Positions 653-21,627 of a stretch of DNA of 64,000 nt are shown piece after piece. Within the stretch, counting starts at the first letter, position 1. Each line of letters starts with the position of its first letter. Source of the DNA: an uncultured Candidatus Saccharibacteria bacterium (GTDB taxonomy: Bacteria; Patescibacteriota; Minisyncoccia; Phycocordibacterales; JACOZG01); contig CAYICB010000002.1 of the NCBI GenBank assembly GCA_964361825.1, positions 5,845 through 69,844 on the forward strand. The letters are read 5' to 3'. Under the pieces are notes generated by a model. The model searched no databases and was not told the origin of the DNA. It worked only from the letters and a program-made list of their open reading frames with translations. The position numbers were made by a program, and so were the translations under genes.

Positions 653-663
653 TGTGGTAGATT

Positions 664-1139: not shown

Positions 1140-1174
1140 CACCGCGAAAGATTTTTTAGTGTTACAATAAAAAA

Positions 1175-1966: not shown

Positions 1967-1989
1967 TATTCATTTTTGCTGAATACAAT

Positions 1990-2280: not shown

Positions 2281-2319
2281 AAACTACCACATTTAGTGGT
2301 TTTTTGCTAGCATTGTTCA

Positions 2320-2706: not shown

Positions 2707-2800
2707 ATGTCCTCCGCTTGCGCGGAGTCGCGGGATAATCCCGAATGTGGCTTTAGTATAGGGGTTATCAAATTTTAGTCAAGTGGATAAGTGTGGTAAA

Positions 2801-2848
2801 GATTTTTTAGCCAAGAAAAAAGGGCGGCCATTGCTGGCTCGCCCGGGG
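2801..2848. repeat. ~45-bp dispersed repeat, copy 2
   Basis: About 90% identical to 1922-1966, in the same orientation. Confidence 0.6.
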
Positions 2849-2874
2849 TTCGTGTGTGTTTCGGTGTTTGAGAG

Positions 2875-3033
2875 CTACTTCTTTTGTTTGTCTTGCTTCT
2901 CAAGAAATTGAATGACCGCGGTTTCGATTAGGTTTGATAGCGTTCGGTTTTGTGCACGGGCCGTCGCCTTAATTTCATCAGCCATGCCCGTGCGAAATGA
3001 CATAAGGATTTTCTTTGATTTTTTCTTGCCCAT
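2875..3033 (-). CDS. ribbon-helix-helix (CopG/Arc-like) small DNA-binding protein, 52 aa
   Basis: Not in the ORF track (<60 aa). Hand translation of the minus strand gives MGKKKSKKILMSFRTGMADEIKATARAQNRTLSNLIETAVIQFLEKQDKQKK; the SNLIETAV segment is a typical RHH helix pair. Confidence 0.5.
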   Translation of the reverse strand: MGKKKSKKILMSFRTGMADEIKATARAQNRTLSNLIETAVIQFLEKQDKQKK

Positions 3034-3106
3034 ATTTATCCTCCCAAAATCAACTAGTCCAAGCTTTTGCTACCACATTTAGCGCTTTTTTGCTACTCTT
3101 TTCGCC

Positions 3107-4060
3107 ATGTCTCTCTCAATTGGCATTGTGGGCCTACCAAATGTGGGAAAATCGACGCTGTTTAATGCCCTGACGGGGAAGGGCGTGCCGGCGGAGAATT
3201 ATCCGTTTTGTACCATTGATCCATCGGTGGGGATTGTGGGCGTGCCCGACCCTAGGCTGGCTAAATTGGCAGAATTTAGTAAATCGGCCAAGACGATTCC
3301 GGCGGCGATTGAATTTGTTGACATTGCGGGGCTGGTGAAAGGCGCCTCCAAGGGCGAGGGCCTCGGGAATCAATTTCTCTCGCATATTCGTGAAGTGGAT
3401 GCGATTCTGCACATGGTGCGCGTTTTTGCCGACGACAAAGTGACGCATGTGAACAATAAAGTGGATCCTCTAAACGATATCGAAACGATTGGTTTGGAAC
3501 TCATTCTCGCTGACCTCGCCACGGTAGAGAAGCGCCGCAGTAATTTGCAAAAAGAGGTGAAGCGCGGAGATAAAAATGCGATTGCCGAAGACGCCCAATT
3601 GGCCGAAGCTGAAGCATTGCTGAAAGATGGCAAGCCCTCCTTCGCGATTAAACATTTGCACCTCTTGAGCGCCAAACCCGTGTTCTATGTGCTCAACACT
3701 TCAAGTGCAACAGAGAACGCCCCCACTTCATTCGTTGGTAACGAACTTCGCGGGGCAGGAGTGGTGGTAAAAGTTGATCCCGTCTTTGGCGAGGGGCTCG
3801 ATGATCTAATTAAAGCGAGTTATAAATTGCTGGGCCTTGCGACCTATTTTACAACAGGGGAAGATGAAACGCGGGCTTGGACCTTCAAACTCGGTTCCAC
3901 GGCGCCGGAGGCGGCCGCGGCGATTCACACCGACTTCCGCGATAAATTTATTAAAGCCGATGTGATTAATTGGGAAGATCTTCTCGCCGGCGGCCACTGG
4001 CGCTTGGAAGGTAAAGAATACTTGGTAAAAGATGGGGATGTGATTGAGTTTAAAATATAA
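3107..4060 (+). CDS. ychF: ribosome-binding ATPase YchF (Obg-like GTPase family)
   Basis: N-terminal GIVGLPNVGKSTLFNALT P-loop, coiled-coil insert, C-terminal TGS-like region (GDVIEFKI). Confidence 0.9.
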   Translation: MSLSIGIVGLPNVGKSTLFNALTGKGVPAENYPFCTIDPSVGIVGVPDPRLAKLAEFSKSAKTIPAAIEFVDIAGLVKGASKGEGLGNQFLSHIREVDAILHMVRVFADDKVTHVNNKVDPLNDIETIGLELILADLATVEKRRSNLQKEVKRGDKNAIAEDAQLAEAEALLKDGKPSFAIKHLHLLSAKPVFYVLNTSSATENAPTSFVGNELRGAGVVVKVDPVFGEGLDDLIKASYKLLGLATYFTTGEDETRAWTFKLGSTAPEAAAAIHTDFRDKFIKADVINWEDLLAGGHWRLEGKEYLVKDGDVIEFKI

Positions 4061-4065
4061 AAAAA

Positions 4066-4098
4066 GACCGGCACGCATGGTGCCGGGTTGCCTTTTTT
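4066..4098. terminator. rho-independent terminator (hairpin CCGGCAC-GCATG-GTGCCGG plus T6), between convergent genes
   Basis: Perfect 7-bp GC stem followed by a T-run on the plus strand and an A-run upstream. Serves ychF and the convergent ORF. Confidence 0.7.
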
Positions 4099-4107
4099 GA
4101 TTTGGGG

Positions 4108-4554
4108 TTAACAAAATAAAGGCAGATAATTACTCGAGGGTAGTTTAATCTCTGATGACCACCCACTCACACGGAGAACAAAGGTGACATTCGACCTCGA
4201 CTTATCGAGGTAAACCTCCAATGAAGAAAACTCCACCAAGAGGTTAGAGACTACCAATCCAGTTTGAGTTTCTGGATCGAAAGACACTCCTTTGTTCGGT
4301 CGAAGAAATAAGTCAAAATCCACGGTGACATTGCGTGGGATCAAAGAACGCGGCAGGTTGTGAGGAAAATTAATTTGCGGATAATGAGGGGTAACATTAT
4401 CACTGATGGTGTTTTCTACCACCAAACTCACAAACCAACCTTCTTGCCCTTTGTGATAGGGGAAAATTACAAACCTTACTTTTGGGTATAGTTTGCCGCC
4501 CTCCACCTCTACCTTCGGTATTATGCCCCAATCCGAATCTTTTCCAATGTGCAT
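4108..4554 (-). CDS. hypothetical protein
   Basis: 148-aa ORF, no recognisable motif. Confidence 0.35.
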   Translation of the reverse strand: MHIGKDSDWGIIPKVEVEGGKLYPKVRFVIFPYHKGQEGWFVSLVVENTISDNVTPHYPQINFPHNLPRSLIPRNVTVDFDLFLRPNKGVSFDPETQTGLVVSNLLVEFSSLEVYLDKSRSNVTFVLRVSGWSSEIKLPSSNYLPLFC

Positions 4555-4643
4555 ATCGCACCTCCTTTTCTGGTTTAATAAATATCAAAAAGAGGGGTGG
4601 TTGTCAATGGTTTGTTTTGTTTGATCGGTGTTATCATTTAAAA

Positions 4644-5195
4644 ATGCAAAATTCACGCTTTCTCAAATGGATCTTGGCTCTCGCTATTGTGATTGTTCTT
4701 AACCTCTTTTTCAATTACGCCATCCACTTGGTTTATGAAGCGCCACAGTGGGAAAATTTTTGTCCAACCAAACAAGTAAATATTATGCCTCAAACCAAAG
4801 AAGCTTGTTTAGATGAAGGCGGTAGTTGGACAGAGGAAAATGGTGAAATGATAACGACAATACCTCTTTTTGGTCCTGGAGATTCGGCCCCAAGGCGTAC
4901 TAGCTATTGCGATGTTAACTTCACCTGTGACCGAGAATTCGACAGTTATCAATCAGTTTATAATCGCAATGTTTTCTTGATCTTAGTGGGAGCTGGCCTA
5001 GCAACACTGTTGCTTAGCCTTTTTGTTGCCCTCACTTCACCTGTTTCGCTCGGCCTCTCGCTTGGCGGCGTGCTCTCAATAATTGTTGGTTCAATTCGTT
5101 ATTGGTCGGAGATGCAAGATTACCTCCGCGTCATTCTCCTCGCCGTCGCTCTTATTCTCCTCATCTGGCTCGGCATCAAGAAGTTTAGGGAATAA
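4644..5195 (+). CDS. hypothetical membrane protein (probable start at 4644 rather than 4482)
   Basis: The in-frame ATG at 4644 avoids overlap with the convergent ORF. N-terminal TM helix and two C-terminal TM helices. Confidence 0.45.
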   Translation: MQNSRFLKWILALAIVIVLNLFFNYAIHLVYEAPQWENFCPTKQVNIMPQTKEACLDEGGSWTEENGEMITTIPLFGPGDSAPRRTSYCDVNFTCDREFDSYQSVYNRNVFLILVGAGLATLLLSLFVALTSPVSLGLSLGGVLSIIVGSIRYWSEMQDYLRVILLAVALILLIWLGIKKFRE

Positions 5196-5201
5196 ATCAC
5201 C

Positions 5202-5909
5202 CTAACTGTTGAACATCGGATGTTCAACAATCTCTGCCAGATCTTTGGCCCCACTTGTTTGTACCCATTCGTGATAATCATCACTTTTTGCAAACTGTTC
5301 GCGAATTGGCTCGGTGTGTAGGAGGTTTGACCAACGGTTCTTAGAAAGGAAGTCTTGATAACTAGACCAAGGATATTCATGGGCCTTATTTCTCCAGCCA
5401 GTTAGCTCACAACAATTCCGATGAATATAAGCTGAGGCATATAACAGCTGTTCATTGTCGCCGATATGCGAAAATTTAAAAGCCCCCTGAAATAAGTAAC
5501 CACTCGCTTGGTATTTGGTATTAAAATATTTGGTGTAACTGTTACCCACTCTTTGCATATACTTCGATATTCCTCCCTCCTTTACTTCTTCTGCGATCAA
5601 GTGAAAATGATTAGGCATCAAGGCGAAGGCAATGAGACGCAGTCCGCGTTCTCGGGTGATTTTTTCTTCCATTGCCCTGTCAGTGTTGAACATCCGATGT
5701 TCAACATATCGAGTGACAAGTCGACCGGGGTTGTCGATTGTTTCTGGCCCTTGAAAATAAAGAAGGGAAAGCAAAAACCGAGCTCGATCACGATCGTCGA
5801 GAAAAATTTTCCTCTTTAAAACCCCGCGGTTGTAAATATGATAAAATTCACCGGGAGCTAATGTTTGCACTCGTTTCATGGTGTCTGTTGAACATCCGAT
5901 GTTCAACAT
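5202..5909 (-). CDS. IS200/IS605-like Y1 (HUH) tyrosine transposase, RAYT-like
   Basis: FYHIYNRG ... MPNHFHLI (HuH motif) ... catalytic-Tyr region YIHRN ... YPWSSY. This is the standard Y1 transposase / REP-associated tyrosine transposase layout. Both gene ends and one internal site carry the 23-bp palindrome. Confidence 0.75.
   Translation of the reverse strand: MLNIGCSTDTMKRVQTLAPGEFYHIYNRGVLKRKIFLDDRDRARFLLSLLYFQGPETIDNPGRLVTRYVEHRMFNTDRAMEEKITRERGLRLIAFALMPNHFHLIAEEVKEGGISKYMQRVGNSYTKYFNTKYQASGYLFQGAFKFSHIGDNEQLLYASAYIHRNCCELTGWRNKAHEYPWSSYQDFLSKNRWSNLLHTEPIREQFAKSDDYHEWVQTSGAKDLAEIVEHPMFNS
5207..5229. repeat. REP-like 23-bp palindrome TGTTGAACATCGGATGTTCAACA (copy at 3' end of RAYT gene)
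   Basis: Perfect 11+1+11 palindrome. Identical copies at 5684, 5886 and 14442; a compensatory variant at 49814. Confidence 0.8.
5684..5706. repeat. REP-like palindrome copy (inside RAYT coding sequence)
   Basis: TGTTGAACATCCGATGTTCAACA, translated in frame as VEHRMFN. Confidence 0.8.
5886..5908. repeat. REP-like palindrome copy (at 5' end of RAYT gene)
   Basis: TGTTGAACATCCGATGTTCAACA, overlapping the annotated start codon region. Confidence 0.8.
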
Positions 5910-5943
5910 TATACGGTATCGTAAGGATTGTGTTTGGGAACAA

Positions 5944-8900
5944 CTATCTCGTCAACTCCTTCATCCCTTCTACCACGAGGCTGGGTTCGCCGTTTCTTAG
6001 CGAGAGTTTGCCTTTAATCGCCACGCATTTTTCGGGTTCGAGGAGTTCGCGACATTCGGCAAAAGTGCGCGAGAAAATTACGAGCTCAATGGAGTCGTTG
6101 AAGTCGGTGAGTTTAGCAAAGCACATCCGGTCGCCCTTCTTAGTGTTAATCAGTTTAATTTCTTCTAACACGCCGGCCACCACGGTGGCGGTGCCGTCTT
6201 TCAAACCTTTGATTTTAGTAATCGAGCGACCAATCGCTTCAATTTTCTCGCGGAATTCTTCGAGCGGATGACCAGAAACATAGAGACCGAGTAGCTCTTT
6301 TTCCCAAGCGAGTTTTTCTTTAGCCGAGATATCGGGCGCCGGTTTGAGTTTGAAGTCGGGCACACTCGCTTTATCGGTCATCGCCGAAAAGAGTGAGTCT
6401 TGATTGCCACCCAATTTGCCACGCTCGCGATTATACTCAAGCGCCGCGTCTAAATTGGCGAGCAAGGTCCCTCTTTCTCCTGCCTTAGAGTTGGGAGAGC
6501 TAAAACAATCCATTGCGCCCGATTTAATCAGCGCTTCGAGTGATTTTTTATTCAAATTACGATGAGTAATGCGCTCAAGCAGGTCGCTAAAACTTTTGAA
6601 CGGGCCTCTCGTTTTGCGCTCACGCACAATCACTTCAGCAATCTCGGCCCCCAAGTTTTTGATGGTCAGCAAACCGAAACTAATTTTATCGCCGTCGGCA
6701 CGGGGCACCCTTGGGTCTGGGTCTTTATGGGTGACCCTTGCCGGCGCTTTGATGACCGTAAAGTCGCTGAAACTCTCATTGATATCTGGCGGTAAAACGG
6801 GGATGCCGAGCAACTTGCACTCGCTAATAATCTCGGCGATCGTTTCGATATTGCCGCTCTCGGCCGAGAGCGCGGCGGTCATATATTCACCCGGATAATT
6901 AGCCTTGAGATAAGCTGTTTGATACGCCACGCGACCATAACTCGCGGCATGCGCCTTGTTGAAGCCGTAACCCTGGAAGGGCTCAAAAAGATTCCAAATT
7001 TCTTCGGCTTTTTCTTTAGTTAAATCACTGTGTTTGATACAACCTTCAACAAACATCACATGCTGTTTCTTCATTTCTTCCGGAATCTTTTTACCGACGG
7101 CTTTGCGGAATTTATCCACTTCGCCCCAGTTGTACCCGGCCACTTCGATGGCCGTCATCAGGAGATCGTCTTGATAGACGAGCACGCCAAAGGTTGGCGC
7201 GAGATAACTCTTCATCTTCGGATGGAGAAATTTTGTTGGCTTCTTGCCATGTTTCCGCGCAATATACTCATAAATATTGTCCATCGGCCCCGGACGATAA
7301 AGCGCCACCATGACATTAATATCTTCCACGCGCGTGGGCTTAAGTTCCTTCAGCGCGCGCGTCATGCCGGTGCCATTAAGCTGAAACAGGCCAATGGTGT
7401 GACCGGCGGTAAGCATGATAAAAGTTTTTTTGTCATCGAGGGGAATTTTTTCAATATCAATTTTCTCACCTCGAGTTTTCTCGATAATTCTAATCGCGCC
7501 TTCGATAATCGAGAGGTTTCTAATGCCGAGAAAGTCGAATTTCAAGAGTCCTGCCTCTTCGACCACATACATATCAAATTGCGTAATAATCTTGCCGCCC
7601 TTCGGGTCGAATTGGAGGGGCACGAAGTCGGTGAGCGGCGTGGGCGAGATCACCACACCCGCAGCATGCACCGAGATGTGCCGAGCATTGCCTTCAATTT
7701 TCTTGGCGAGATCAATAATTTCTTTGGTTGCAGTATCGGTATCATAAAGCTGTTTTAATTCTGGTGTAATCTCAAGCGCGTGATCAATCGTCATCGGGAA
7801 GCCTTGCGAACCCATCGGGATTAAATTAGAGATTTTATCGCCCACGGCATAAGGGTGACCGAGCGCTCGCGCCACATCACGCACCGCGCCCCGCGCCATC
7901 ATCGAGCCGAAAGTACCAATTTGCGCCACATGATCTTCACCATACTTTTTCTTTACATAATCAATCACTTCATCGCGTCGACGATCGGCAAAGTCCATGT
8001 CGATATCGGGCGGGCTCGGGCGATCGGGATTAAGAAAGCGCTCGAAGGGGAGATTATAATAAAGCGGGTCAACACTAGAAATACCAATGAGATGCGAGGT
8101 AAAACAGCCGGCCGCCGAGCCTCGAGTATTGGTAAAGATGCCTTGGGCGCGGGTAAAGTTGAAGATGTCAGCCACCACGAGAAAGTAGGGAGCGTAACCC
8201 TTGTTGATAATAACTTCGAGCTCGTAAGCGAGGCGAGTGGCAGCTTCTTCTTTGCGATCGGGATTGCGTTCGAGATATTCGGGCAAGCGACTTTCGGCAA
8301 ATTTTCGTAGTTCTTCTTCTGGTGTCTCGGCGAGGGTAAGTTGAAATTTGGGAAAGACCCATTTGCCAAGCTCCAGTTTGAGATCACAAGCCTCGGCAAT
8401 TTTGAGGGTGTTATCGACGGCTTCAGGCGCGTCTTTAAAATGCTCGCGCATGGTGGCCTCGTCAATCAGTGAGAAATCATCACCGGCCTTGGTATAGCGT
8501 TTATTATCATCGGCATCAGTATTTGTACCAATCGCCACAAGCGTATCATGAGCCTTCGTGTCGTCTGGTTGTAAGTAGTGAGCATCTTGAGTAGCAACCA
8601 AGGGAATTCCCAATTCGTGAGCTAGTTTGATCGCTTGTTCTTTAAGCTCCGGATAGCGTTCAATTTTGGGGTGATGAAAAATTTCAATAAAATAATTTTC
8701 TGGGCCAAAAATTTCTCGATATTCATTAGCAATCTTTTTTGCTTCCTCATAATTCCGCGCCAGAATAGCGCGGGACAATTCACTGGCCATACAACCAGAT
8801 AAGCAAATAACCCCCTCGTGGTGCTCGCGCATCAGCTCTTTATCAATCCGTGGTTTATAATAATAACCTTCGAGGTTGGCTTTGGTCACGAGCTTAACCA

Positions 8901-9198
8901 AATTTTTATAACCCACGGCATTCTTGGCAAGCAGGGTAAGATGAAAGCGTTTGCTGTCGATATTAGCTTCTTTATCAAAGCGCGACCGCGCGGCCACATA
9001 AGCCTCCACGCCAACAATTGGCTTAATGCCCGCGCTTTGGCACTTTTTATAAAACTCAATCGCGCCATAGAGATTGCCGTGATCGGTGAGGGCGAGCGCT
9101 GGCAAACCGAGCTCCTTAGCTCGATCAACAAGATCATCAATCTTGGCCAGCCCATCAAGCAGGCTATAATGGCTGTGATTGTGAAGGTGGACAAACAT
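5944..9198 (-). CDS. dnaE: DNA polymerase III alpha subunit
   Basis: 1084 aa with a PHP domain (HLHNHSHYSLLDG), polymerase core, and C-terminal OB fold. Confidence 0.95.
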   Translation of the reverse strand: MFVHLHNHSHYSLLDGLAKIDDLVDRAKELGLPALALTDHGNLYGAIEFYKKCQSAGIKPIVGVEAYVAARSRFDKEANIDSKRFHLTLLAKNAVGYKNLVKLVTKANLEGYYYKPRIDKELMREHHEGVICLSGCMASELSRAILARNYEEAKKIANEYREIFGPENYFIEIFHHPKIERYPELKEQAIKLAHELGIPLVATQDAHYLQPDDTKAHDTLVAIGTNTDADDNKRYTKAGDDFSLIDEATMREHFKDAPEAVDNTLKIAEACDLKLELGKWVFPKFQLTLAETPEEELRKFAESRLPEYLERNPDRKEEAATRLAYELEVIINKGYAPYFLVVADIFNFTRAQGIFTNTRGSAAGCFTSHLIGISSVDPLYYNLPFERFLNPDRPSPPDIDMDFADRRRDEVIDYVKKKYGEDHVAQIGTFGSMMARGAVRDVARALGHPYAVGDKISNLIPMGSQGFPMTIDHALEITPELKQLYDTDTATKEIIDLAKKIEGNARHISVHAAGVVISPTPLTDFVPLQFDPKGGKIITQFDMYVVEEAGLLKFDFLGIRNLSIIEGAIRIIEKTRGEKIDIEKIPLDDKKTFIMLTAGHTIGLFQLNGTGMTRALKELKPTRVEDINVMVALYRPGPMDNIYEYIARKHGKKPTKFLHPKMKSYLAPTFGVLVYQDDLLMTAIEVAGYNWGEVDKFRKAVGKKIPEEMKKQHVMFVEGCIKHSDLTKEKAEEIWNLFEPFQGYGFNKAHAASYGRVAYQTAYLKANYPGEYMTAALSAESGNIETIAEIISECKLLGIPVLPPDINESFSDFTVIKAPARVTHKDPDPRVPRADGDKISFGLLTIKNLGAEIAEVIVRERKTRGPFKSFSDLLERITHRNLNKKSLEALIKSGAMDCFSSPNSKAGERGTLLANLDAALEYNRERGKLGGNQDSLFSAMTDKASVPDFKLKPAPDISAKEKLAWEKELLGLYVSGHPLEEFREKIEAIGRSITKIKGLKDGTATVVAGVLEEIKLINTKKGDRMCFAKLTDFNDSIELVIFSRTFAECRELLEPEKCVAIKGKLSLRNGEPSLVVEGMKELTR

Positions 9199-9257
9199 TG
9201 AGCCGATTATAGCAAATGTGCTAGGGTGATACAGGGCTTTTTGAAAGGAGGAAGGTT

Positions 9258-9674
9258 ATGCACGTTCACCACGAGGATTTACCTACGCGCGTTGGGATAA
9301 TCATGAGAAGACTCTTTGCTGGAGAATACCAGCTTTTATTTAAAGCTGGTAATGAATCGAAGATTTGGAGTATCCCCGAAGACATGATGAACGTAAACGA
9401 GACACCAAATGATGCGTTCTGGCGAATTCTCAAAACATTCACTGTGAACTGGGAACGCGAAACGGTGGTTTTTGAGAAGGTTGGCGATGTGAAAGCTTGG
9501 CCATTAAAAACAAGAAACACGCCCCTGTACCGACTCTATTTGGTTGAACCACTCCCACTGATTTCAAGCCACCAATGCTCTTTTTGTTTAAGTTGGCTTG
9601 GCGATCGGGAACTGAAAAACACGGGAGTCGAACTATCAAGCATCGTACCGCTGCTAACGACCAAATATCTTTGA
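9258..9674 (+). CDS. hypothetical protein (possible degenerate Nudix-like fold)
   Basis: 138 aa. The segment ETPNDAFWRILKTFTV resembles a Nudix box (ETPEEAAxRELKEETGL) with the catalytic residues replaced. Weak. Confidence 0.3.
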   Translation: MHVHHEDLPTRVGIIMRRLFAGEYQLLFKAGNESKIWSIPEDMMNVNETPNDAFWRILKTFTVNWERETVVFEKVGDVKAWPLKTRNTPLYRLYLVEPLPLISSHQCSFCLSWLGDRELKNTGVELSSIVPLLTTKYL

Positions 9675-9679
9675 GCCCC

Positions 9680-9714
9680 ACGGGTTGCCGCCAACGGCAA
9701 CCCTTATTTTTTTG
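9680..9714 (+). terminator. rho-independent terminator (GGGTTGCCG-ccaa-CGGCAACCC plus T-run)
   Basis: Perfect 9-bp stem followed by TTATTTTTTT. Confidence 0.7.
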
Positions 9715-9739
9715 TAAAAAATAGGCTTAAAATACAGAG

Positions 9740-10330
9740 ATGAAATCCAAACACCTAGTTGGCATTGATGAAGCGGGGCGGGGGCCGCTCGCCGGGCCGG
9801 TGGCGGTTGGTGTAGTAACCACGAGGGGAACCCTCGTGGTAAAAAGGTGGCAAGGAATAAAGGATTCTAAACAACTAAGTGAAAAACAACGAGAAGCGTG
9901 GTTTGCTAAGCTGAAAACAGCAAAAATAGCTGGCGAAATAGACTTTGCCGTGGCTTTGGTGAGTAATAAAGTGATTGATCAGAAAGGAATAAATGTGGCG
10001 ATTAAGCTAGGAATTCGCCGGGTCACGGCAAGGATGCTCCTTGCCGCAAAAGATTGCTTGGTTTTGCTTGATGGTGGCCTCAAGGCACCGGCCGAGTTTG
10101 TAAACCAAAAAACCATCATTCGCGGCGATGAAAAAGAACCAATTATCGCTCTGGCCTCTATTGTGGCTAAGGTTACGCGCGACCACTTCATGCAAAAAAT
10201 GGCCCAAAAGTACCCAAATTACGGCTTCGAGGTTCATAAGGGTTATGGCACACTTTCGCATCGTCAGTCAATTAAAAACAATGGCCTTTCGCCTATCCAC
10301 CGAACTAGCTTTTTGAAGTCAAAATTTTAA
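9740..10330 (+). CDS. rnhB: ribonuclease HII
   Basis: GIDEAGRGPLAGPV active-site motif; length 196 aa. Confidence 0.9.
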   Translation: MKSKHLVGIDEAGRGPLAGPVAVGVVTTRGTLVVKRWQGIKDSKQLSEKQREAWFAKLKTAKIAGEIDFAVALVSNKVIDQKGINVAIKLGIRRVTARMLLAAKDCLVLLDGGLKAPAEFVNQKTIIRGDEKEPIIALASIVAKVTRDHFMQKMAQKYPNYGFEVHKGYGTLSHRQSIKNNGLSPIHRTSFLKSKF

Positions 10331-10370
10331 CCTTTGACTTTTGCCTTTTAACTTGTTAGCATAGCGGCCT

Positions 10371-10598
10371 ATGGTAATTCGCATGCGACATACTCGGGCG
10401 CATACCGGCAATCGCCGGTCACATCATGCGCTCACCGGGCCACGCCTTTCTAAGTGCGCTAATTGTGCCGCGGAGCATTTGCGCCACCGTGTTTGCTTAT
10501 CTTGCGGTCATTATCGAGGTAAAATGATCATTGATGTGGCCGCCGCCGCTAAAAAATTGGCTGATAAAAAGAAGGCCAAATCAGCAACGGCAAAATAA
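10371..10598 (+). CDS. rpmF: 50S ribosomal protein L32
   Basis: RRSHHALT ... zinc-ribbon C.NC....HRVC.SCG.Y. Start may be the internal ATG at 10383. Confidence 0.8.
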   Translation: MVIRMRHTRAHTGNRRSHHALTGPRLSKCANCAAEHLRHRVCLSCGHYRGKMIIDVAAAAKKLADKKKAKSATAK

Positions 10599-10630
10599 TC
10601 CCACCGAGAGTGGGTTGTTTTTCTTTTTTT
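10598..10630 (+). terminator. rho-independent terminator (CCCAC-cgaga-GTGGG plus T-run) followed by a TATAAT box at 10633-10638
   Basis: Short GC stem plus a long T-run. A -10-like hexamer lies immediately downstream, before nusB. Confidence 0.55.
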
Positions 10631-10653
10631 GCTATAATGTTGGTAATTGAAAA

Positions 10654-11577
10654 TTGATTATGGCCAATCGGCACTTATCTAGAAGTCTTGCGATGCAATC
10701 TCTCTTCGAGTGGGACGAGCGCGGTGGCGAAACCAAGAAGTTGCCCGAGATTATTCAGGCCAATGTGGCCGAGTTTGCTCCGGGGATAGAAGATACTGAT
10801 TTTGTGGACCGTTTAGTGCAAGGAGTGGTGGCCAAACAAGCGGAGCTCGATGAGATTATTGAGAAAGCCGCTCCCGATTGGCCCATTAATCTTATCGCCC
10901 CAATTGACCGCAATGTACTCCGGATGGGTCTTTATGAACTTTTGTTTGCCGATCGCCACGAAGTGCCAGCAAAGGTGGCGATCAATGAAGCTATCGAGAT
11001 TGCTAAAACTTTCGGTGGAGAAAATAGCGGTAAATTTGTAAACGGCGTTCTCGGCACGGTGTATAAAGAGCTCGGCGAACCGGGTAAAGATGAGGTTCCC
11101 GCCAAGAAAAAGCGCCCCAAGGATGTGCCTTATGATGAAATGCCGATTGAGACGCTGGGTGGCGCGGTGGTGTATGCTCGTTTTGACGAAGAAATTAAAT
11201 TGGCAATGGTGCACGACATTTTTGGCTACTGGACGCTATCAAAAGGACGGATCGAAACTGGCGAAAAGGCCGAACAAGACACCGCAAAAAAAATCAAAGA
11301 AGAAATGGCTTTAGAGGTCAAGATTTTGGCTTCGCTTGGCACCAATGAATACATCGCTTCTGATCCCGAGCGGGGCAAAATTCGCAAACAAGTGAAATAC
11401 TTTTTGGCCGAAGCGCTTAATCCTACCGAAATTCATTTACCAAAAAAGGAGGAGAAGGGTGGTCTTGACGATGTGCGCTGGTTCCACTTGGCCGAAGTGC
11501 CGGATCTTAAGATGTATGATGACGTTTTACCTTTTGTGACCAAAGCGATCAAACAATTAAATGACGCCAAAAATTGA
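10654..11577 (+). CDS. nusB: NusB antitermination factor fused to a C-terminal Nudix-like domain
   Basis: N-terminus: RSLAMQSLFEWD ... NGVLG (NusB fold). C-terminal ~140 aa: GGAVVYARFDEE.KLAMVHD..GYWTLSKGRIETGEKAEQDTAKKIKEEMAL, a Nudix fold with a degenerate box (RE replaced by KK, G by A). Confidence 0.8.
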   Translation: MIMANRHLSRSLAMQSLFEWDERGGETKKLPEIIQANVAEFAPGIEDTDFVDRLVQGVVAKQAELDEIIEKAAPDWPINLIAPIDRNVLRMGLYELLFADRHEVPAKVAINEAIEIAKTFGGENSGKFVNGVLGTVYKELGEPGKDEVPAKKKRPKDVPYDEMPIETLGGAVVYARFDEEIKLAMVHDIFGYWTLSKGRIETGEKAEQDTAKKIKEEMALEVKILASLGTNEYIASDPERGKIRKQVKYFLAEALNPTEIHLPKKEEKGGLDDVRWFHLAEVPDLKMYDDVLPFVTKAIKQLNDAKN

Positions 11578-12259
11578 GCAATTCGAAACAGTTTTGGGGT
11601 TAAAGTTTAAGAATCAGGCGCTTTTGGGCGAGGCGCTCGTTCATCGGTCTTATTTAAATGAGCACCGAAACTTTAGTTTGCCCCACAATGAACGGTTAGA
11701 ATTTTTGGGTGATGCCGTGCTCGAACTTGTGATTACCGACCACCTTTTCCGCCTGTATCCCAAAGAGAATGAAGGCGCGCTGACCGCTTACCGCGCGGCG
11801 CTGGTAAATGCCAATACGCTCGGGGAAATTGCGGCCGGACTCGGGGTCAATGATTATTTACTGCTCTCAAAGGGTGAGTCGCGCGACAATGGCCGAGCGA
11901 GGCAAGTAATTCTCGCCAATGCCATCGAGGCGATTATTGGGGCGATTTATCTCGACCAAGGTTACGAAGTGGCGGCCAGTTTTATTGGCCGGAATTTTTT
12001 CGATCAAGTGCCAAGCATCATTGCCGGTGAACGCTTCCGTGATGCTAAAAGCCTCTTCCAAGAACGCGCGCAGGAAAAAGAAAACACTACTCCCGTTTAT
12101 CGCGTTTTGGGAGAAAATGGTCCCGATCACGAAAAAACCTTTACCGTCGGTCTTTACTTGGTAGAAGAAAAAGTGGCTGAAGGCACGGGTCACTCCAAAC
12201 AAGAGGCCGAGCAAGCGGCGGCCGCCGCCGGACTCTTGGTAAAAAACTGGGGAAAATAA
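11561..12259 (+). CDS. rnc: ribonuclease III
   Basis: ERLEFLGDAVLELVITDHLF signature plus a C-terminal dsRBD. Confidence 0.9.
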   Translation: MTPKIEQFETVLGLKFKNQALLGEALVHRSYLNEHRNFSLPHNERLEFLGDAVLELVITDHLFRLYPKENEGALTAYRAALVNANTLGEIAAGLGVNDYLLLSKGESRDNGRARQVILANAIEAIIGAIYLDQGYEVAASFIGRNFFDQVPSIIAGERFRDAKSLFQERAQEKENTTPVYRVLGENGPDHEKTFTVGLYLVEEKVAEGTGHSKQEAEQAAAAAGLLVKNWGK

Positions 12260-12265
12260 GAGCGT

Positions 12266-14407
12266 ATGCGCCTCAAATCTCTCGAGCTCACCGGTTTTAA
12301 ATCGTTTAGTAAGAAAACGGTTTTAATTTTTGACTCTGCTGTCACCGCCGTGGTGGGTCCTAATGGCTCAGGGAAAAGTAATGTGGCCGAGGCTTTTCGT
12401 TGGGTTTTGGGCGAACAATCGCTCAAATCTTTGCGCGGCAAACGCGGTGAGGACTTAATTTGGAATGGTTCCCAAGGCGCGCCCCGAGCAATTCGAGCTA
12501 GTGTTACGGTAACCTTCGATAATCGCGACAAGAAATTTAATGTTGCCTACGATGAAGTAAAAATTGAGCGCGTAGTGCATCGCGACGGCTTGAATGACTA
12601 TCTTTTGAACGGCACGGCGGTGCGCCTAAAAGATATTTTAGAACTTTTAGCGGGGGCTTCGCTTGGTTCTTCGGGCCATCATATTATCCGCCAAGGCGAG
12701 GCCGACCGCGTGCTGGAGTCGAGCGCCGCCGAACGACGAGAATTACTCGAAGACGCCTTTGGTTTGCGTCTGTATCAATGGAAAATTGCCGAAAGCGAGA
12801 AGAAACTAGAGAAAACTGAAGATAATTTAAAACAAGTGGCCTCGCTCCGGCGTGAACTTGCGCCACATTTGAAATATCTCGAGCGCGAGATGGAAAAAAT
12901 TAAGCGAGCCGAAAGTTTGCGCGTAGAACTAAAGGAATTTTATGAAATTTATTTAGCAACCGAGAAAGCGTATTTGGCCCAAGGCGCCTTCGCTCTAGAA
13001 AGTGAGCTTCGGCGACCCAAGGGCGAATTGCATGAAGTAGAAACAAAATTAAATCACTTGAGTCGCGAGGAGGTGAAGGTGGATGAGCGGGCGCTGGATG
13101 AAAAAAGACGCGCGCGGGAAATAATTTCGCGAGATTTAGGCCGGATTGAAGGCTTAATTGAGGCGAGGCGAATGCCGATGGCTTTGCCAAGAGCCACAGA
13201 AGCTATTACTAAAAGTCGCGTCGAAGAATTGTTTGGGCGTTTGGAAACTTGGCTTGCTGAAGCGGAGACGAGCAAAATCGTCGAAGTTTGGCAAGAAATT
13301 GGAGGGAGAATTAAACGAGCGCTAAAAGAATTTTGGCATCCGCCAGCTAGCGGAGCCGCACCAACCGAAGACAGAACAGCAGAAATTAAGGATTTGGAGA
13401 ACGAGCAGGAGAAATTAGAGAAAGAACGGGCCGAGCTCGAAACAGAAATTAGCACTTTACTTGAGCGGGCTAAAACCGTAAATGAGGCTGAGAAAGAAGT
13501 GTTTGCCCTGCGTTTACGAAAAAATGAACTCATGAGTGAGTTGGCGACACTGAAGATGAAAGAAGAAAGATTGGCGCTCGAGAAAAATCACTTCACAACC
13601 ATGCTCGCCGAGGCCAAGAATTTGCTCGGTGGCATTCTTGGTGAGGGGAAAATTGAAGATATTAATGATCGCGCGGCTCAAGAAGTGGCGCGACGAGAAA
13701 TCGAGAAAAGAAAACTTAGACTCGAAGACCTCGGAGTCGAGAGTGGCGATACAGTGAAGGAATATAAGGAAACTGTGGCGCGCGATGAGCACTTGGCCAA
13801 GGAGATTACGGATCTGGAGGCCAGTGGCGCGAGTTTGCGCCAAATTATTGAAGAATTGCAAATCAGGATTGATCGCGAATTCCGCGAAGGTCTCGCCAAA
13901 ACCAATCAGGAATTCCAAAAGTTCTTCGCCCTCATGTTTGGCGGCGGCACAGCTGAATTAATTTTAACTAAACCACCTAGGGCCAAGCGCGATGACCTTG
14001 AACTTACGGCTGAAATACCTAGCCTAAACAGCGAAACGCCGTCGGCCAAAGAAGAAGGTGTTGATATTAATTTGAGCCTGCCACGCAAGAAAATCCGCGG
14101 GCTCGAGATGCTCTCGGGTGGCGAACGCTCGCTCACCGCTATTTCGCTCCTCTTCGCGCTCTCGCAGGTTAACCCGCCGCCCTTCATGATTCTCGACGAA
14201 ACCGACGCCGCTCTCGACGAGGCCAACTCGCGCAAATATGGCGACTTGGTTGAACAACTAGCCCAACACTCGCAACTCATTCTCATTACCCATAATCGCG
14301 AAACAATGTCGCGCGCTTCCGTCCTCTACGGCGTGACCATGGGCGGCGACGGTGCCTCCCGCCTCCTCTCCATCAAACTCGACGACGCGATGGGGTATGC
14401 GAAGTGA
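12266..14407 (+). CDS. smc: SMC-like chromosome segregation ATPase (short form, 713 aa)
   Basis: N-terminal Walker A (GPNGSGKSNVAEAFRWVLGEQS), long coiled coil, C-terminal signature LSGGERSLTAISLLFAL and Walker B ILDETDAALD. Conserved rnc-smc synteny. No recognisable hinge domain. Confidence 0.75.
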   Translation: MRLKSLELTGFKSFSKKTVLIFDSAVTAVVGPNGSGKSNVAEAFRWVLGEQSLKSLRGKRGEDLIWNGSQGAPRAIRASVTVTFDNRDKKFNVAYDEVKIERVVHRDGLNDYLLNGTAVRLKDILELLAGASLGSSGHHIIRQGEADRVLESSAAERRELLEDAFGLRLYQWKIAESEKKLEKTEDNLKQVASLRRELAPHLKYLEREMEKIKRAESLRVELKEFYEIYLATEKAYLAQGAFALESELRRPKGELHEVETKLNHLSREEVKVDERALDEKRRAREIISRDLGRIEGLIEARRMPMALPRATEAITKSRVEELFGRLETWLAEAETSKIVEVWQEIGGRIKRALKEFWHPPASGAAPTEDRTAEIKDLENEQEKLEKERAELETEISTLLERAKTVNEAEKEVFALRLRKNELMSELATLKMKEERLALEKNHFTTMLAEAKNLLGGILGEGKIEDINDRAAQEVARREIEKRKLRLEDLGVESGDTVKEYKETVARDEHLAKEITDLEASGASLRQIIEELQIRIDREFREGLAKTNQEFQKFFALMFGGGTAELILTKPPRAKRDDLELTAEIPSLNSETPSAKEEGVDINLSLPRKKIRGLEMLSGGERSLTAISLLFALSQVNPPPFMILDETDAALDEANSRKYGDLVEQLAQHSQLILITHNRETMSRASVLYGVTMGGDGASRLLSIKLDDAMGYAK

Positions 14408-14441
14408 TTTTTTCTTGCTCAAAAGTTTTTGCTAGGTACAA

Positions 14442-14464
14442 TGTTGAACATCGGATGTTCAACA
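14442..14464. repeat. REP-like palindrome copy upstream of the MGMT-like gene
   Basis: TGTTGAACATCGGATGTTCAACA, identical to copies in the RAYT locus about 9 kb away. Confidence 0.8.
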
Positions 14465-14465
14465 A

Positions 14466-14729
14466 ATGAAAACAAAAAGTTTTAAGGAAAAGGTGTTTGC
14501 GGTGGTGGGTAAAATTCCGAAAGGGAAGGTGCTAACTTACAAACAGGTTGCGGAAAGAGCCGGTTCGCCCAGAGCGGCGCGGGCAGTGGGGAGTATTTTG
14601 AAAAACAATTTTGATCCTGCGATCCCGTGTCATCGGGTTATTCGCTCTGATGGGGGAATGGGCGGTTACAATCGCGGCGGCAAAAACAAAAAATTAGAAA
14701 TTTTGAAAAAAGAAGGGGCGAGAGTATAA
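14466..14729 (+). CDS. MGMT-family (Ogt C-terminal domain) small protein
   Basis: 87 aa with the HTH and PCHRV active-site cysteine motif of O6-alkylguanine-DNA alkyltransferase. Lacks the N-terminal domain. Confidence 0.7.
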   Translation: MKTKSFKEKVFAVVGKIPKGKVLTYKQVAERAGSPRAARAVGSILKNNFDPAIPCHRVIRSDGGMGGYNRGGKNKKLEILKKEGARV

Positions 14730-14737
14730 TCGGGCAA

Positions 14738-17473
14738 ATGGCGCCAAAGAAAAAAGCGAAAAAGAAGGCTTATTTGCTGGTGGAATTCCCGTACCCCTCC
14801 GGCGAGGGTTTGCATGTGGGCCATGTGCGGAGCTACACCGCGATGGATATTGTGGCCCGCAAACGGCGACTGCAAGGCGAGGAAGTGATGTTCCCGATGG
14901 GTTGGGACGCCTTTGGTTTGCCGGCCGAGAATTATGCGATTAAAACTGGTGTGAATCCGGCCATTACCACCAAAAAAAATATTGCTAACTTCAAACGGCA
15001 AATGAAGTCACTTGGACTCTCCTTCGACTGGTCGCGAGAGGTAAACACCACGGATCCAAATTATTATAAATGGACGCAGTGGCTCTTTTTGCAATTTTAC
15101 AAAAACGGCCTCGCTTACAAAGCGAAGTCAGAGATTAATTGGTGCCCGAAAGATAAAATCGGCCTAGCCAATGAAGAAGCGATTGGTGGTATTTGTGAGC
15201 GTTGCGGGACAAAAACAGAAAAGAAGGAAAAGGAGCAATGGATGCTCGCGATTACCAAATACGCCGACCAGCTCGATCGCGATCTCGACCTTGTGGATTA
15301 TCCCGAATCAGTAAAGGCGCAACAAAAAAATTGGATAGGAAAAAGTGAGGGCTGGGAGATTGGGTTCGACAATATTAAAATCTTCACCACGCGCCCCGAC
15401 ACTATTTTCGGCGCAACTTTTATCGCTGTGGCCCCAGAAGTGGCTAAGAAATTAACCGGAAAAGATTTTGGGATTAAAGTTGATAATGATCGAGAAAATA
15501 AAGAAAAACTTGGTGTTGATACTGGTTTGCGAGTGAAGAATCCCGCGAACGGGGAAATGTTACCAGTTTGGGCCGTTAATTATGTCTCGGCCGATTACGG
15601 CACCGGCGCGATTATGGGCGTGCCCGCCCACGATGAACGCGATTTCGAATTTGCCAAGAAATATAATTTGCCGATTAGGCAGGTAATTATGCCGAGCCTC
15701 ATCCATGAATCCAACCCACCATTAGAAGGAAAAGAAAACACTTTTCGCAAGGTGGTTCTCTCGATCGTATACAATCCAAAAACAAAAAAATATTTAACCC
15801 TCAAGTGGAAAAAACAACCGTGGGTCTCGTTTGTGACCGGTGGAGTGGAAGACGGAGAAAACCACGCGGAAGCAGCGGCGAGAGAAATCACAGAAGAAAC
15901 AGGGTATAAAAATGTCCGCCTCGTGCGTAGTTTTGGAATGACTGAGGCCTACTTTTTTGCCGCGCACAAAAATGTAAATCGCCGAACGAACGCTGAACAC
16001 TTCCTTTTCGAACTCGTAGATGATACTCAAGAAAAAATTTCGCCCGAAGAGCAGGAACAATATGATTTACAATGGTTATCTTTTGCCGAACTTAAGACAA
16101 TAAATTTGCAACATGCTGAAACAGCAATGCTTCTTCGGCGCATTGAAACTGGGCAAGACTTTTTCTCTGATTCGGGTCGCCTTTTCAATTCTGGTAAATT
16201 CAACGACCTAATGTCCGATGAAGCCAAAAATCAAATTGCAAAAGAGGTGGGCGCAAAGGCGGTGACAACACACAAACTCCGTGATTGGGTGTTTTCGCGA
16301 CAGCGCTACTGGGGTGAACCGATTCCGATGATTTATTGCGAAAAATGCGCCCTAAACGATTCCGTCGGGCAAGGTTGGCAACCGGTGCCGGAGAAAGATT
16401 TGCCAGTGAAATTGCCAAAGGTAGATAAGTATCAGCCGACGGATAATGGCGAATCGCCGCTCGCGAATATCAAAAAGTTTACAGAAGTGAAATGCCCCAA
16501 GTGTAAAAGCGCGGCGCGACGAGAGACCGACACCATGCCCAATTGGGCCGGCTCGAGTTGGTATTATTTGCGTTACATCGACCCAAAAAACAAAAAAGAA
16601 TTTGCGAGCAAGAAAAAACTTGAAAGCTGGCTTCCGATAGATTGGTACAATGGCGGCATGGAGCACACCACGCTCCACCTGCTCTACTCGCGCTTCTGGC
16701 ATAAGTTTTTATACGACCAAAAACTGGTTCCAACCTCCGAACCTTATACCAAACGCACTTCGCACGGCGTTATTTTGGCTCAAGATGGCGAGAAAATGAG
16801 CAAATCGCGTGGCAATGTAATTAATCCGGATGACATTGTGAAGCTTTACGGCGCCGATGCCCTGCGTCTCTACGAAATGTTTATGGGCCCCTTCGAGCAA
16901 GCGGTATCGTGGCAAACGGGGAGTATTATTGGGGTGAAGCGGTTTTTAGAGAGAGTAGAAAGAGTAAATTCAAAAGGCAAAAGGCAAAAGTCAAAAGGAC
17001 AAGGCAAAAGTCAAAAGTTGGAGATTTTACTCAACCAGTGCGCGAAGAAAGTGAGCGATGATATTGAGGCGATGCGCTTCAACACCGCCGTGAGTTCGCT
17101 AATGATTGCGCTTAATGAGCTCGAAAAAGCCGAGAAAATTCCAGCGAAGGTGTGGGAAACTTTCTTAATCTTACTTTCACCCTTTGCCCCGTTCTTAACC
17201 AAAAAACTGTTGGGTAAAAGTGCCTCGCACCGCGGAGCCTCGGCGAAGTGGTGGCCCAAATATGACCCGAGTCTGGTTGCCGAAGAAAAGAAAACGCTCT
17301 CCGTACAAATTAATGGCAAAATGCGAGGAATTCTTGAGGTTACCGGCACCGAAACCGAGGCCGAAATTATCAACCTTGCCGAGCAAGACCCCAATCTCGC
17401 CAAGTGGTTTGCCGGTAAACCCCGGAAAAAAGCCATCTACCAACCGGGTAGATTTATTAATCTGATTATTTAA
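14738..17473 (+). CDS. leuS: leucyl-tRNA synthetase with an inserted Nudix hydrolase domain
   Basis: HVGH and KMSKS class I motifs; TTRPDT and GVDTG (CP1) motifs; anticodon-binding C-terminus. A ~150-aa insert after EFAKKYNLPIRQVI carries a perfect Nudix box GGVEDGENHAEAAAREITEETGY. Confidence 0.95.
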   Translation: MAPKKKAKKKAYLLVEFPYPSGEGLHVGHVRSYTAMDIVARKRRLQGEEVMFPMGWDAFGLPAENYAIKTGVNPAITTKKNIANFKRQMKSLGLSFDWSREVNTTDPNYYKWTQWLFLQFYKNGLAYKAKSEINWCPKDKIGLANEEAIGGICERCGTKTEKKEKEQWMLAITKYADQLDRDLDLVDYPESVKAQQKNWIGKSEGWEIGFDNIKIFTTRPDTIFGATFIAVAPEVAKKLTGKDFGIKVDNDRENKEKLGVDTGLRVKNPANGEMLPVWAVNYVSADYGTGAIMGVPAHDERDFEFAKKYNLPIRQVIMPSLIHESNPPLEGKENTFRKVVLSIVYNPKTKKYLTLKWKKQPWVSFVTGGVEDGENHAEAAAREITEETGYKNVRLVRSFGMTEAYFFAAHKNVNRRTNAEHFLFELVDDTQEKISPEEQEQYDLQWLSFAELKTINLQHAETAMLLRRIETGQDFFSDSGRLFNSGKFNDLMSDEAKNQIAKEVGAKAVTTHKLRDWVFSRQRYWGEPIPMIYCEKCALNDSVGQGWQPVPEKDLPVKLPKVDKYQPTDNGESPLANIKKFTEVKCPKCKSAARRETDTMPNWAGSSWYYLRYIDPKNKKEFASKKKLESWLPIDWYNGGMEHTTLHLLYSRFWHKFLYDQKLVPTSEPYTKRTSHGVILAQDGEKMSKSRGNVINPDDIVKLYGADALRLYEMFMGPFEQAVSWQTGSIIGVKRFLERVERVNSKGKRQKSKGQGKSQKLEILLNQCAKKVSDDIEAMRFNTAVSSLMIALNELEKAEKIPAKVWETFLILLSPFAPFLTKKLLGKSASHRGASAKWWPKYDPSLVAEEKKTLSVQINGKMRGILEVTGTETEAEIINLAEQDPNLAKWFAGKPRKKAIYQPGRFINLII
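16970..17018. repeat. tandem 14-nt unit GGCAAAAGTCAAAA (about 3 copies) inside leuS, in frame
   Basis: Encodes the KGKRQKSKGQGKSQK low-complexity insert. Related copies at 10332-10349 (reverse complement, intergenic) and 41919-41949 (inside fmt). Confidence 0.55.
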
Positions 17474-17529
17474 TTTGTAGCAGATAAGAACGATCGTTCG
17501 AATCTGTTGCAAATTCAAAAAACAAAAAA

Positions 17530-17575
17530 ATAGCCGTCAGTTGGAATTGCTTCCAACTGACCGGTTTTTGTTGTT
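17530..17575. terminator. bidirectional rho-independent terminator (CAGTTGGAA-ttgc-TTCCAACTG flanked by A-run and T-run)
   Basis: Perfect 9-bp stem lying between the convergent leuS and Clp_N genes. Confidence 0.7.
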
Positions 17576-17592
17576 TCGAAAAACACCCGAGT

Positions 17593-18213
17593 TTACTCAA
17601 TAGAGGATCTGATAGCCTCTATTACCCGCTCTTTAATGGGGGCAAAGTCTGGTCGCCTGATCGTGTAACGAAGATCTCCAATGCGCACCTTTTGGGCCAA
17701 AACCACCACCAAAGCCAGTAGTTTTTCCTCTGTTTCTGTTGGGGCTGGTGGTGTTTGAACGGCATCACTCTCATCCTTCGGGTCAACCGTCCGCAACACT
17801 TCTTTGCGCACCTTCTTAAGATTGAGTCCCGAGGCAATCAAAACTTGCGCCGCGATGCCATCCTGCTCACGAAGCAGACCGAGCAATAAATGTTCACTGC
17901 CCACCCAACCATGATTCAGATTACGCGCTTCCTCAATGGTGTACTCGATGACCTTTTTGGCTCGCGGCGTCTTCGGCAGATTGCCCATAGTGACCATTTC
18001 GGGCCCACTTTTGATCAGTTTCTCCACCTCTATGCGGACCTTGCGCAGGTCGACATCGAGGTTCTTGAGAACATCGGCGCCAACACCAGACCCTTCCTTC
18101 ACCAAACCAAGCAGGATGTGTTCGGTGCCAAGGTACTCGTGATTGAATCGCTGAGCCTCCTGATTGGCCAAATGCATAATTTTTCTTGCACGATCGGTAA
18201 ATCCTTCATACAT
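17593..18213 (-). CDS. Clp N-terminal (Clp_N repeat) domain protein, no ATPase module
   Basis: Two Clp_N repeats (FTDRARKIMHLANQEAQRFNHEYLGTEHILLGL; AKKVIEYTIEEARNLNHGWVGSEHLLLGLL). Probable start at MYEGF. Confidence 0.7.
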   Translation of the reverse strand: MYEGFTDRARKIMHLANQEAQRFNHEYLGTEHILLGLVKEGSGVGADVLKNLDVDLRKVRIEVEKLIKSGPEMVTMGNLPKTPRAKKVIEYTIEEARNLNHGWVGSEHLLLGLLREQDGIAAQVLIASGLNLKKVRKEVLRTVDPKDESDAVQTPPAPTETEEKLLALVVVLAQKVRIGDLRYTIRRPDFAPIKERVIEAIRSSIE

Positions 18214-18409
18214 CTTTTCACCCCTTTCGGTGTTCGGTATCAAAGAACAAAGGTTAATTATCAAGCGGTCACGCGCCGTTTGTCCTTGCCAAAGTCCAAA
18301 CTACCGCTAAGATGGAAGTTAGTCAAATTGGGTGGTTTTAAACAGGTTTAGTTGACGGGAATAGGGTTAAATGATAGAAATAGGTAATAAATTAGATTAT
18401 TAGTAAAAT

Positions 18410-19441: not shown

Positions 19442-19472
19442 ACTCTGGCTTGGTTTCTGTTATTATTAAAGG

Positions 19473-20678: not shown

Positions 20679-20682
20679 AACC

Positions 20683-21624: not shown

Positions 21625-21627
21625 TTT

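Follow-up and report, generated by a model that had tools for sequence, protein, structure and literature searches.

The window, by which we mean the whole 64-kb stretch of DNA analysed here, carries a gene in which a NusB domain, a Lys-rich linker and a Nudix-fold domain follow one another in a single reading frame. This gene, called nusB::nudix below, stands between rpmF, its conserved upstream neighbour, and rnc, whose 5' end overlaps the 3' end of the fusion gene by 17 nt (Table 1). The reading frame found mechanically (10654..11577, forward strand) opens with TTG and encodes 307 aa without internal stop. The ATG at 10660, two codons past the TTG at 10654, appears to be the likelier start, since the N-terminus of the relatives reads MANRH and since a public protein of 305 aa, the length that this start would give, is identical to it (P0001; NCBI MEK7505212.1, named 'NusB', from a Patescibacteria group bacterium; 100% identity over 305 aa). 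Residue numbers are nevertheless counted from the TTG throughout, so that the NusB domain, which begins at 10660, covers aa 3-140.

Table 1. Features of the nusB::nudix locus and of the second Nudix-containing gene of the window.
Feature	Coordinates	Strand	Description
rpmF	10371..10598	+	Ribosomal protein L32; conserved upstream neighbour of nusB::nudix
Terminator-like hairpin	10600..10630	+	CCCAC-CGAGA-GTGGG followed by a T tract; directly 3' of the rpmF stop codon
TGCTATAAT	10630..10638	+	Fits the extended -10 promoter consensus (TGnTATAAT); lies 22 nt 5' of the ATG; read directly
nusB::nudix CDS	10660..11577	+	Probable ATG start; stop codon 11575-11577
NusB domain, aa 3-140	10660..11073	+	All-helical; Pfam, TIGR01951, PDB matches and model
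Linker GEPGKDEVPAKKKRPKDVPYDEMP, aa 141-164	11074..11145	+	Lys-rich; predicted disordered at 143-153
Nudix-fold domain, Ap4A-hydrolase/RppH type, aa 165-307	11146..11574	+	Pfam, model, Foldseek and profile
Nudix box, aa 198-220	11245..11313	+	G RIETG E KAEQDTA KK I K EE M A L
K212 K213	11287..11292	+	AAA AAA within an A8 run, replacing Arg-Glu; direct reading
rnc	11561..12259	+	RNase III; 5' end overlaps the nusB::nudix 3' end
LeuRS gene with NUDIX insert	14738..17473		Insert aa 336-460, Pfam E 2.3e-16; fully canonical box

Two short elements lie between rpmF and the fusion gene. The motif TGCTATAAT is a possible promoter of nusB::nudix and rnc; a promoter scan that needs a -35 hexamer did not report it, and it stands as a consensus match only. 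The same holds for the hairpin that follows rpmF, terminator-like sites being no more numerous in the region than expected from shuffled sequence. Taken as such consensus matches, the two elements suggest a nusB::nudix-rnc transcription unit. An Rfam search of the 64-kb window returned no RNA element, hence no rRNA leader there.

A NusB of the ordinary kind stops after about 140 aa, and to our knowledge this universal and well-studied protein is very constant in size and architecture. The initial annotation had read the present ORF as a single-gene fusion whose residues ~1-140 are NusB, and both points stand. The N-terminal part matches Pfam NusB (PF01029, aa 9-138, E 8.5e-35, 120.5 bits for a cut-off of 23.1) and scores 129.6 bits with the NCBIfam equivalog model TIGR01951 (nusB), whose curated cut-off is 88.35. 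Solved NusB chains of the PDB match it by sequence with E values from 1e-20 to 1e-14, and AlphaFold builds aa 2-140 as seven helices, mostly with pLDDT >90. A second NusB domain was not found in the 64-kb window. As this is the only NusB of the window and scores above the equivalog cut-off, the best reading of nusB::nudix is that it encodes the organism's own NusB, that is, the boxA-RNA- and S10-binding subunit of the rRNA antitermination complex. NusB binds, together with S10, to boxA in the rRNA leader, and it remains with the elongating polymerase.

The linker is the best conserved part of the protein among close relatives, with a mean identity of 75%, compared with 69% for the NusB domain and 62% for the Nudix domain; in distant fusions it is variable in sequence, basic, and 13-45 aa long. 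AlphaFold gives pLDDT values below 50 to residues 143-153. For the full-length protein the mean pLDDT is 86 with a pTM of 0.51 and no confident arrangement of NusB relative to Nudix; the C-terminal part modelled by itself reaches a pTM of 0.78. The models thus predict no set position of the domains relative to each other, and the Nudix domain looks tethered to NusB rather than docked on it.

The C-terminal part folds in the AlphaFold model as the alpha/beta sandwich of Nudix proteins, and it matches Pfam NUDIX above the cut-off (PF00293, aa 176-288, E 2.9e-9, 37.5 bits for a cut-off of 21.1). With Foldseek, the model retrieved 570 Nudix chains of the PDB at E <= 1e-3. The best of them is the Ap4A hydrolase of Aquifex (3i7u, aq_158; E 1.4e-10), which also gives the top TM score, 0.89; other top matches are the mycobacterial diadenosine polyphosphatase MutT1/Rv2985, Chlamydia CT771, NrtR, Thermus Ndx1, NUDT2 and RppH, the RppH enzymes of Bdellovibrio (BdRppH) and E. 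coli (EcRppH) coming at E about 1e-7. The best hit of the profile search is the Ap4A hydrolase of C. elegans (E 5e-10), Dcp2 also being significant (E 5e-5). Both by sequence and by structure, the nearest neighbours therefore form the Ap4A-hydrolase/RppH-like subgroup of Nudix proteins. In the profile alignment with the C. elegans enzyme (1kt9), K197, K240, K242, K245 and Y288 correspond to K36, K79, K81, K83 and Y121, and F190 and Y192 lie opposite Y27 and H31; we take these residues of the C. elegans enzyme to be its phosphate-binding and adenine-stacking residues. Two weak leads towards RNA were also met in this part of the Nudix family, namely the similarity to RppH and Dcp2 and, in the same clade, an RNase E/G protein with two degenerate Nudix domains; this latter fusion lies on one contig of low coverage, whose source does not appear to be a Patescibacterium.

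The Nudix box itself departs from the signature GX5EX7REUXEEXGU. It reads G-x5-E-x7-KK-I-x-EE-x-A-L, the relevant residues being G198, E204, K212, K213, E216, E217 and A219; the G, the E and the EE pair are present, while KK stands for RE and Ala for the last Gly, exactly as had been annotated from the sequence. The Ala carries little weight, the final Gly position of the box being occupied by S, N or G in the family. An assembly error in the A8 run that encodes the two lysines was considered and is ruled out: KK is also read in P0400, from a contig of 84.9 kb, and in P0401, from a separate ENA assembly whose protein differs elsewhere by one residue (D45E). The RExxEE residues bind the metal cofactor of Nudix enzymes (PMC5526541). 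In RppH, the Nudix motif covers residues 38-60 and the E53A variant is catalytically inactive (PMC6061791); K213 sits at the position of this E53, the Glu of RE. Because a Lys is found at that position and because the Arg has changed as well, efficient hydrolysis by the window domain is unlikely, and we predict that it is lost or crippled, although E204, E216 and E217 are kept and may conceivably sustain a residual activity. For these reasons, 'Nudix hydrolase' is the wrong term for the domain, which is better called a Nudix fold of the Ap4A-hydrolase/RppH type whose box is degenerate. Each of the 46 positions with a conservation of 95% or more in the family is retained in the window protein, and the divergence of its Nudix domain does not exceed the family mean.

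A search with a profile of the C-terminal part against one genome per GTDB species showed that at least 592 species genomes, of the Paceibacteria/Parcubacteria type, contain the fusion. The 120 best database matches are all about 300 aa long, carry both Pfam domains and share 63-75% identity with the query, and a profile built from divergent fusions recovered only two-domain proteins, again of about 300 aa. The sources that bear a name are Paceibacterota, Nomura-, Vogel-, Taylor-, Campbell- and Moranbacteria, the Parcubacteria group and Minisyncoccia. The fusion spans the Paceibacteria (Parcubacteria) branch of Patescibacteria. Its gene order is equally constant. In all of the best 80 species loci, NusB and Nudix lie in one uninterrupted frame and the order is rpmF, nusB::nudix, rnc, usually with smc next and, in most, dnaE and rnhB upstream. 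The same order is found even for the divergent protein P0244, whose Nudix part is no longer seen by Pfam and which is still encoded between rpmF and rnc.

Two genes, or a frameshift or stop missed in the assembly, are ruled out by the continuous frame in the window and in 80/80 related loci. A separate Nudix protein starting internally at the invariant Met163 was also considered but is improbable, no convincing ribosome-binding site being seen there; Met163 belongs to a conserved PYExMPIE segment that packs on the domain in the AlphaFold model. As to the origin of the fusion, we found no support for the joining of neighbouring genes: the stand-alone relatives P0147, P0243 and P0166 are not located beside nusB, and one of the three lies in a phage-like context. 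Public databases name these proteins plainly 'NusB', even though the pair of precomputed Pfam domains is visible there, and our literature search found no paper describing a NusB-Nudix fusion. As far as we have checked, the architecture, though retrievable from public data, is thus uncharacterised; that the catalytic site was lost repeatedly within the fusion is a new observation.

The state of the box varies widely among the relatives. RE is present in 100 of 121 close relatives (83%), and the box is canonical in 49 of the 80 best species loci and in 67 of 118 members of a second homologue sample. Of the stand-alone relatives, which measure about 140 aa, 17 of 20 are canonical. The proportion falls to 5/40 among full-length representatives of 50%-identity clusters, a sample that over-weights divergent lineages and singletons. 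In a pooled set of 359 fusions, 214 (60%) are canonical at E204, R212, E213, E216 and E217 and 145 are not; position 213 is E in 249 of them, K in 56, R in 22, V in 12 and I in 10. Degeneracy of the box can therefore be ruled out as a hallmark of the family, 60-83% of the better-sampled relatives being canonical. The fusion is common to the relatives, but the degeneracy that had been annotated with it is limited to the window protein and to scattered lineages. On a neighbour-joining tree built from the positions outside the box, parsimony places a canonical box at the root and counts at least 50 changes of state, a figure that tree error inflates. Even so, the sequences clearly point to many losses of the box.

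Among the non-canonical members, D188, F190, W193, T194, K197, Y233, K245, W276 and Y288 are retained at 94-100%, K197, K240, K242, K245 and Y288 are nearly invariant across the fusions, and the divergence of the Nudix domain in the non-canonical members is only slightly above that of their NusB domains. Loss of box residues, with fold and pocket retained under selection, is the pattern expected of a non-catalytic Nudix binder, and it is the pattern found here. We infer that the catalytic site was given up time and again and that purifying selection went on acting on the pocket, which would mean that in those lineages the domain has a selected function without turnover.

The window contains one other Nudix domain, inserted into its LeuRS. 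The initial annotation had seen in the two cases a genome that repeatedly attaches Nudix modules to its information-processing proteins. The LeuRS insert is real; yet its box is canonical and its similarity to the NusB-linked domain marginal, and on a BLASTP E value of 0.028 we reject a common origin. Judged from their sequences, the two attachments in this genome are independent and belong to different Nudix subtypes, and are not one repeated module. For a third candidate, the ORF 9258..9674, a Nudix-like nature found no support, as it has no Pfam match and an hhalign probability of 0.08.

Altogether, we propose that nusB::nudix encodes the cell's NusB with a tethered module that binds polyphosphate nucleotides, that this module is catalytically dead or crippled in the window protein, and that its likeliest ligand is the 5' end of nascent pre-rRNA. 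We give this reading a probability of roughly 45%. The ancestral Nudix domain would most likely have been an active pyrophosphohydrolase, whose metal-binding residues were replaced in many lineages, here by the change from RE to KK, with the nucleotide/polyphosphate pocket being retained. The suggestion of the initial annotation that the domain binds rather than hydrolyses remains the most reasonable one, the metal-binding RE being absent and the pocket conserved; the loss of activity in the window protein is deduced by analogy with RppH. In our opinion the domain most likely binds, and does not cleave, a nucleotide or the 5' end of an RNA.

The 25-residue basic tether, the pocket of the Ap4A-hydrolase/RppH type and the fixed operon with RNase III lead us to suppose that the module is brought to the boxA antitermination complex, where it would probably work. 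Its ligand would be a group of the nucleoside-polyphosphate type. On a more speculative note, we would prefer the 5'-triphosphate or Np4-capped end of the pre-rRNA leader, an end that would lie a few tens of nucleotides from boxA and could be reached by the tether. Members of the KK type would then hold the 5' end at the NusB/S10-boxA complex, aiding its handling and the processing by RNase III, while box-intact members would, like RppH, turn it into a monophosphate. The rRNA antitermination complex (rrnTAC) has been reported to bridge the 5' and 3' parts of pre-rRNA and in this way to boost its processing by RNase III during transcription (bioRxiv 10.64898/2026.03.17.712431). The consequence of such binding for rRNA synthesis is equally speculative.

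One may wonder whether the window domain is still an enzyme, that is, an RppH- or Ap4A-hydrolase-like pyrophosphohydrolase working at the rRNA transcription complex, which would tolerate KK and leave the metals to its other acidic residues. E204, E216 and E217 are indeed available, E217 showing no variation within the close family; the box is canonical in most relatives, and the entire substrate pocket is conserved. However, the Glu of RE is essential in RppH and forms part of the metal site, and a positively charged Lys takes its place here. Moreover, K, R, V or I occupies position 213 in about 100-105 of the 359 fusions, often with E204 and R212 lost too, which looks like a metal site that has been abandoned. 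We consider an active window enzyme unlikely. As for the family as a whole, hydrolysis may be the main function and the KK-type members the exceptions, given that 60% of the fusions and 83% of the close relatives are canonical. Another possibility concerns the ligand. The domain could sense a free nucleotide, such as Ap4A, other dinucleoside polyphosphates or (p)ppGpp, and tune NusB-dependent antitermination, with hydrolysis, where it persists, resetting the signal. The conservation of the pocket without the catalytic residues would suit such a sensor, the closest structures and profiles are those of dinucleoside polyphosphate hydrolases, and the top structural matches include NrtR (3gz8), in which a non-catalytic Nudix domain senses a ligand on behalf of a transcription regulator. 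The same data fit the 5' end of an RNA, though, and no allosteric path to NusB is apparent in a model where the domains are joined by a disordered tether; a free-nucleotide sensor is in our view doubtful.

A ligand may even be dispensable, if the enzyme fold was recruited as a scaffold of the antitermination complex. The precedent would be E. coli SuhB, a protein of the inositol-monophosphatase fold that is an integral subunit of the rrnTAC and whose enzymatic function is regarded as unnecessary there (PMC6614797). Repeated loss of catalytic residues and conservation of the linker speak for such a part, but the invariant residues align with the nucleotide/phosphate pocket of Ap4A hydrolases and outline no obvious separate surface, which makes a pure scaffold quite improbable. 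Much the least credible explanation is a chance fusion, in which a house-cleaning Nudix gene would have been joined to nusB without any functional coupling and would be decaying in some lineages. Gene fusions are frequent in reduced genomes, and the LeuRS of the same window has received a second, unrelated Nudix insertion. Against this, at least 592 species have retained the fusion, at a constant place in the operon, the non-canonical members preserve the other invariant residues at 94-100% with a Nudix domain barely more diverged than NusB, and the Nudix domain of the window protein shows no excess divergence. We hold a chance event to be highly improbable.

Returning to the preferred reading, a NusB with a tethered binding module, a bolder version of it can be formulated, in which the NusB of an entire class of ultra-small bacteria would possess a built-in clamp or sensor for the 5' end of pre-rRNA, either triphosphorylated or Np4-capped, or for an alarmone such as Ap4A, catalysis being optional. 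We would at present bet against this version. If it were true, antitermination, looping of the 5' leader and processing by RNase III would be coupled to the nucleotide state, the Nudix domain taking on the job that falls in E. coli to separate accessory subunits such as SuhB, and some lineages would cut the 5' end where others merely hold it. More generally, a nucleotide-handling fusion that runs through the class and shares a fixed operon with RNase III would imply that Patescibacteria assemble their machine for rRNA transcription and processing in another way than the E. coli model. Orthologues with an intact box and orthologues with a degenerate one make up a natural series, and comparing them could reveal which role the Nudix domain plays, be it 5'-end conversion, capture or nucleotide sensing. 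It should also be kept in mind that thousands of public 'NusB' entries hide a second domain, to which Pfam is blind in the divergent members.

A parallel can be drawn with several known systems. Over its N-terminal 140 aa the protein resembles any NusB, being all-helical and above the cut-offs of TIGR01951 and PF01029; it differs from ordinary NusB by its additional basic tether of 25 aa and Nudix domain of 140 aa, and by the position of its gene between rpmF and rnc. With the Ap4A hydrolases of C. elegans and human, aq_158, CT771, Ndx1 and Rv2985, the C-terminal domain shares the W-T-x-x-K-G lead-in and the Lys and Tyr positions, but identity is only 20-26%, and here the domain is fused to NusB and has KK for RE. 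RppH and Dcp2, which act on the 5' ends of RNA, have the same Nudix sub-fold; they are weaker matches than the Ap4A hydrolases, and the E53 that is essential in RppH is a Lys in the window protein.

In other cases a Nudix fold serves as a binding module on the gene-expression machinery, as in the effector domain of NrtR, which binds ADP-ribose and whose structure is among the ten best matches to the window domain, and in CFIm25/NUDT21, which binds RNA. The Nudix domain of NUDT21 has been described as RNA-binding (PMC7852185). The NusB-linked domains have no specific sequence relationship to either of them and, unlike them, mix canonical and degenerate boxes among orthologues. Finally, SuhB offers the example of an enzyme fold placed at the service of a NusB-containing complex. 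The analogy is functional only, as SuhB has another fold, that of inositol monophosphatases, is a separate polypeptide and binds the AR2 domain of NusA, while in the Paceibacteria the Nudix fold is part of NusB itself.

The Nudix clade of the NusB-linked domain is also carried by other nucleic-acid proteins. We found two domains of this clade at the C-terminal side of an RNase E/G protein (P0255), both with degenerate boxes. The contig that encodes P0255 has low coverage, and the neighbouring genes, coding for an H+-PPase, an argininosuccinate lyase and a DAP decarboxylase, do not look like those of Patescibacteria. A further case of attachment to a nucleic-acid-binding protein is P0210 (379 aa), in which sigma-70 region 4 and a DnaA C-terminal helix-turn-helix domain are joined to a Nudix domain of this clade.

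Concerning the fusion itself, Met163 (window 11140..11145) immediately precedes the first Nudix strand and is invariant in the close relatives (121/121), where it lies inside a conserved PYExMPIE motif. In fragmentary homologues, gene callers place the start at this residue. Where a Nudix box would have Arg-Glu, this gene has two Lys codons, both contained in an A8 homopolymer run at window 11286..11293 (gcAAAAAAAAtc). Recurrence of the run in independent assemblies rules out a sequencing error. The run may be liable to slippage.

Features discussed in this section, with their coordinates
Feature	Length	Location	Strand	Remarks
RNase E/G protein P0255	1074 aa	L086 (locus) 5001-8225		
Leucyl-tRNA synthetase gene	911 aa	window 14738..17473	+	NUDIX insert at about 15743-16117
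ORF between dnaE and rnhB	138 aa	window 9258..9674	+	Pfam: no match
SMC-like gene downstream of rnc	713 aa	window 12266..14407	+	

In the leucyl-tRNA synthetase of the window, the editing domain is followed by an inserted NUDIX domain (residues 336-460, Pfam E 2.3e-16). This insert has a fully canonical box (GGVEDGENHAEAAAREITEETGY), and its similarity to the NusB-linked domain is only marginal (BLASTP E 0.028). As for the small ORF between dnaE and rnhB, a Nudix-box-like stretch (WSIPEDMMNVNETPNDAFWRILKTFTV) was noticed by eye, and a Nudix relationship of this ORF was not supported by profile comparison (hhalign probability 0.08). An Rfam scan of window 1..64000 at the gathering threshold returned no RNA family, be it tRNA, rRNA or riboswitch.

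Finally, the SMC-like gene keeps its position downstream of rnc in most related loci. Typical bacterial SMC proteins comprise about 1,150-1,200 aa, and the protein encoded in the window is far shorter than these.
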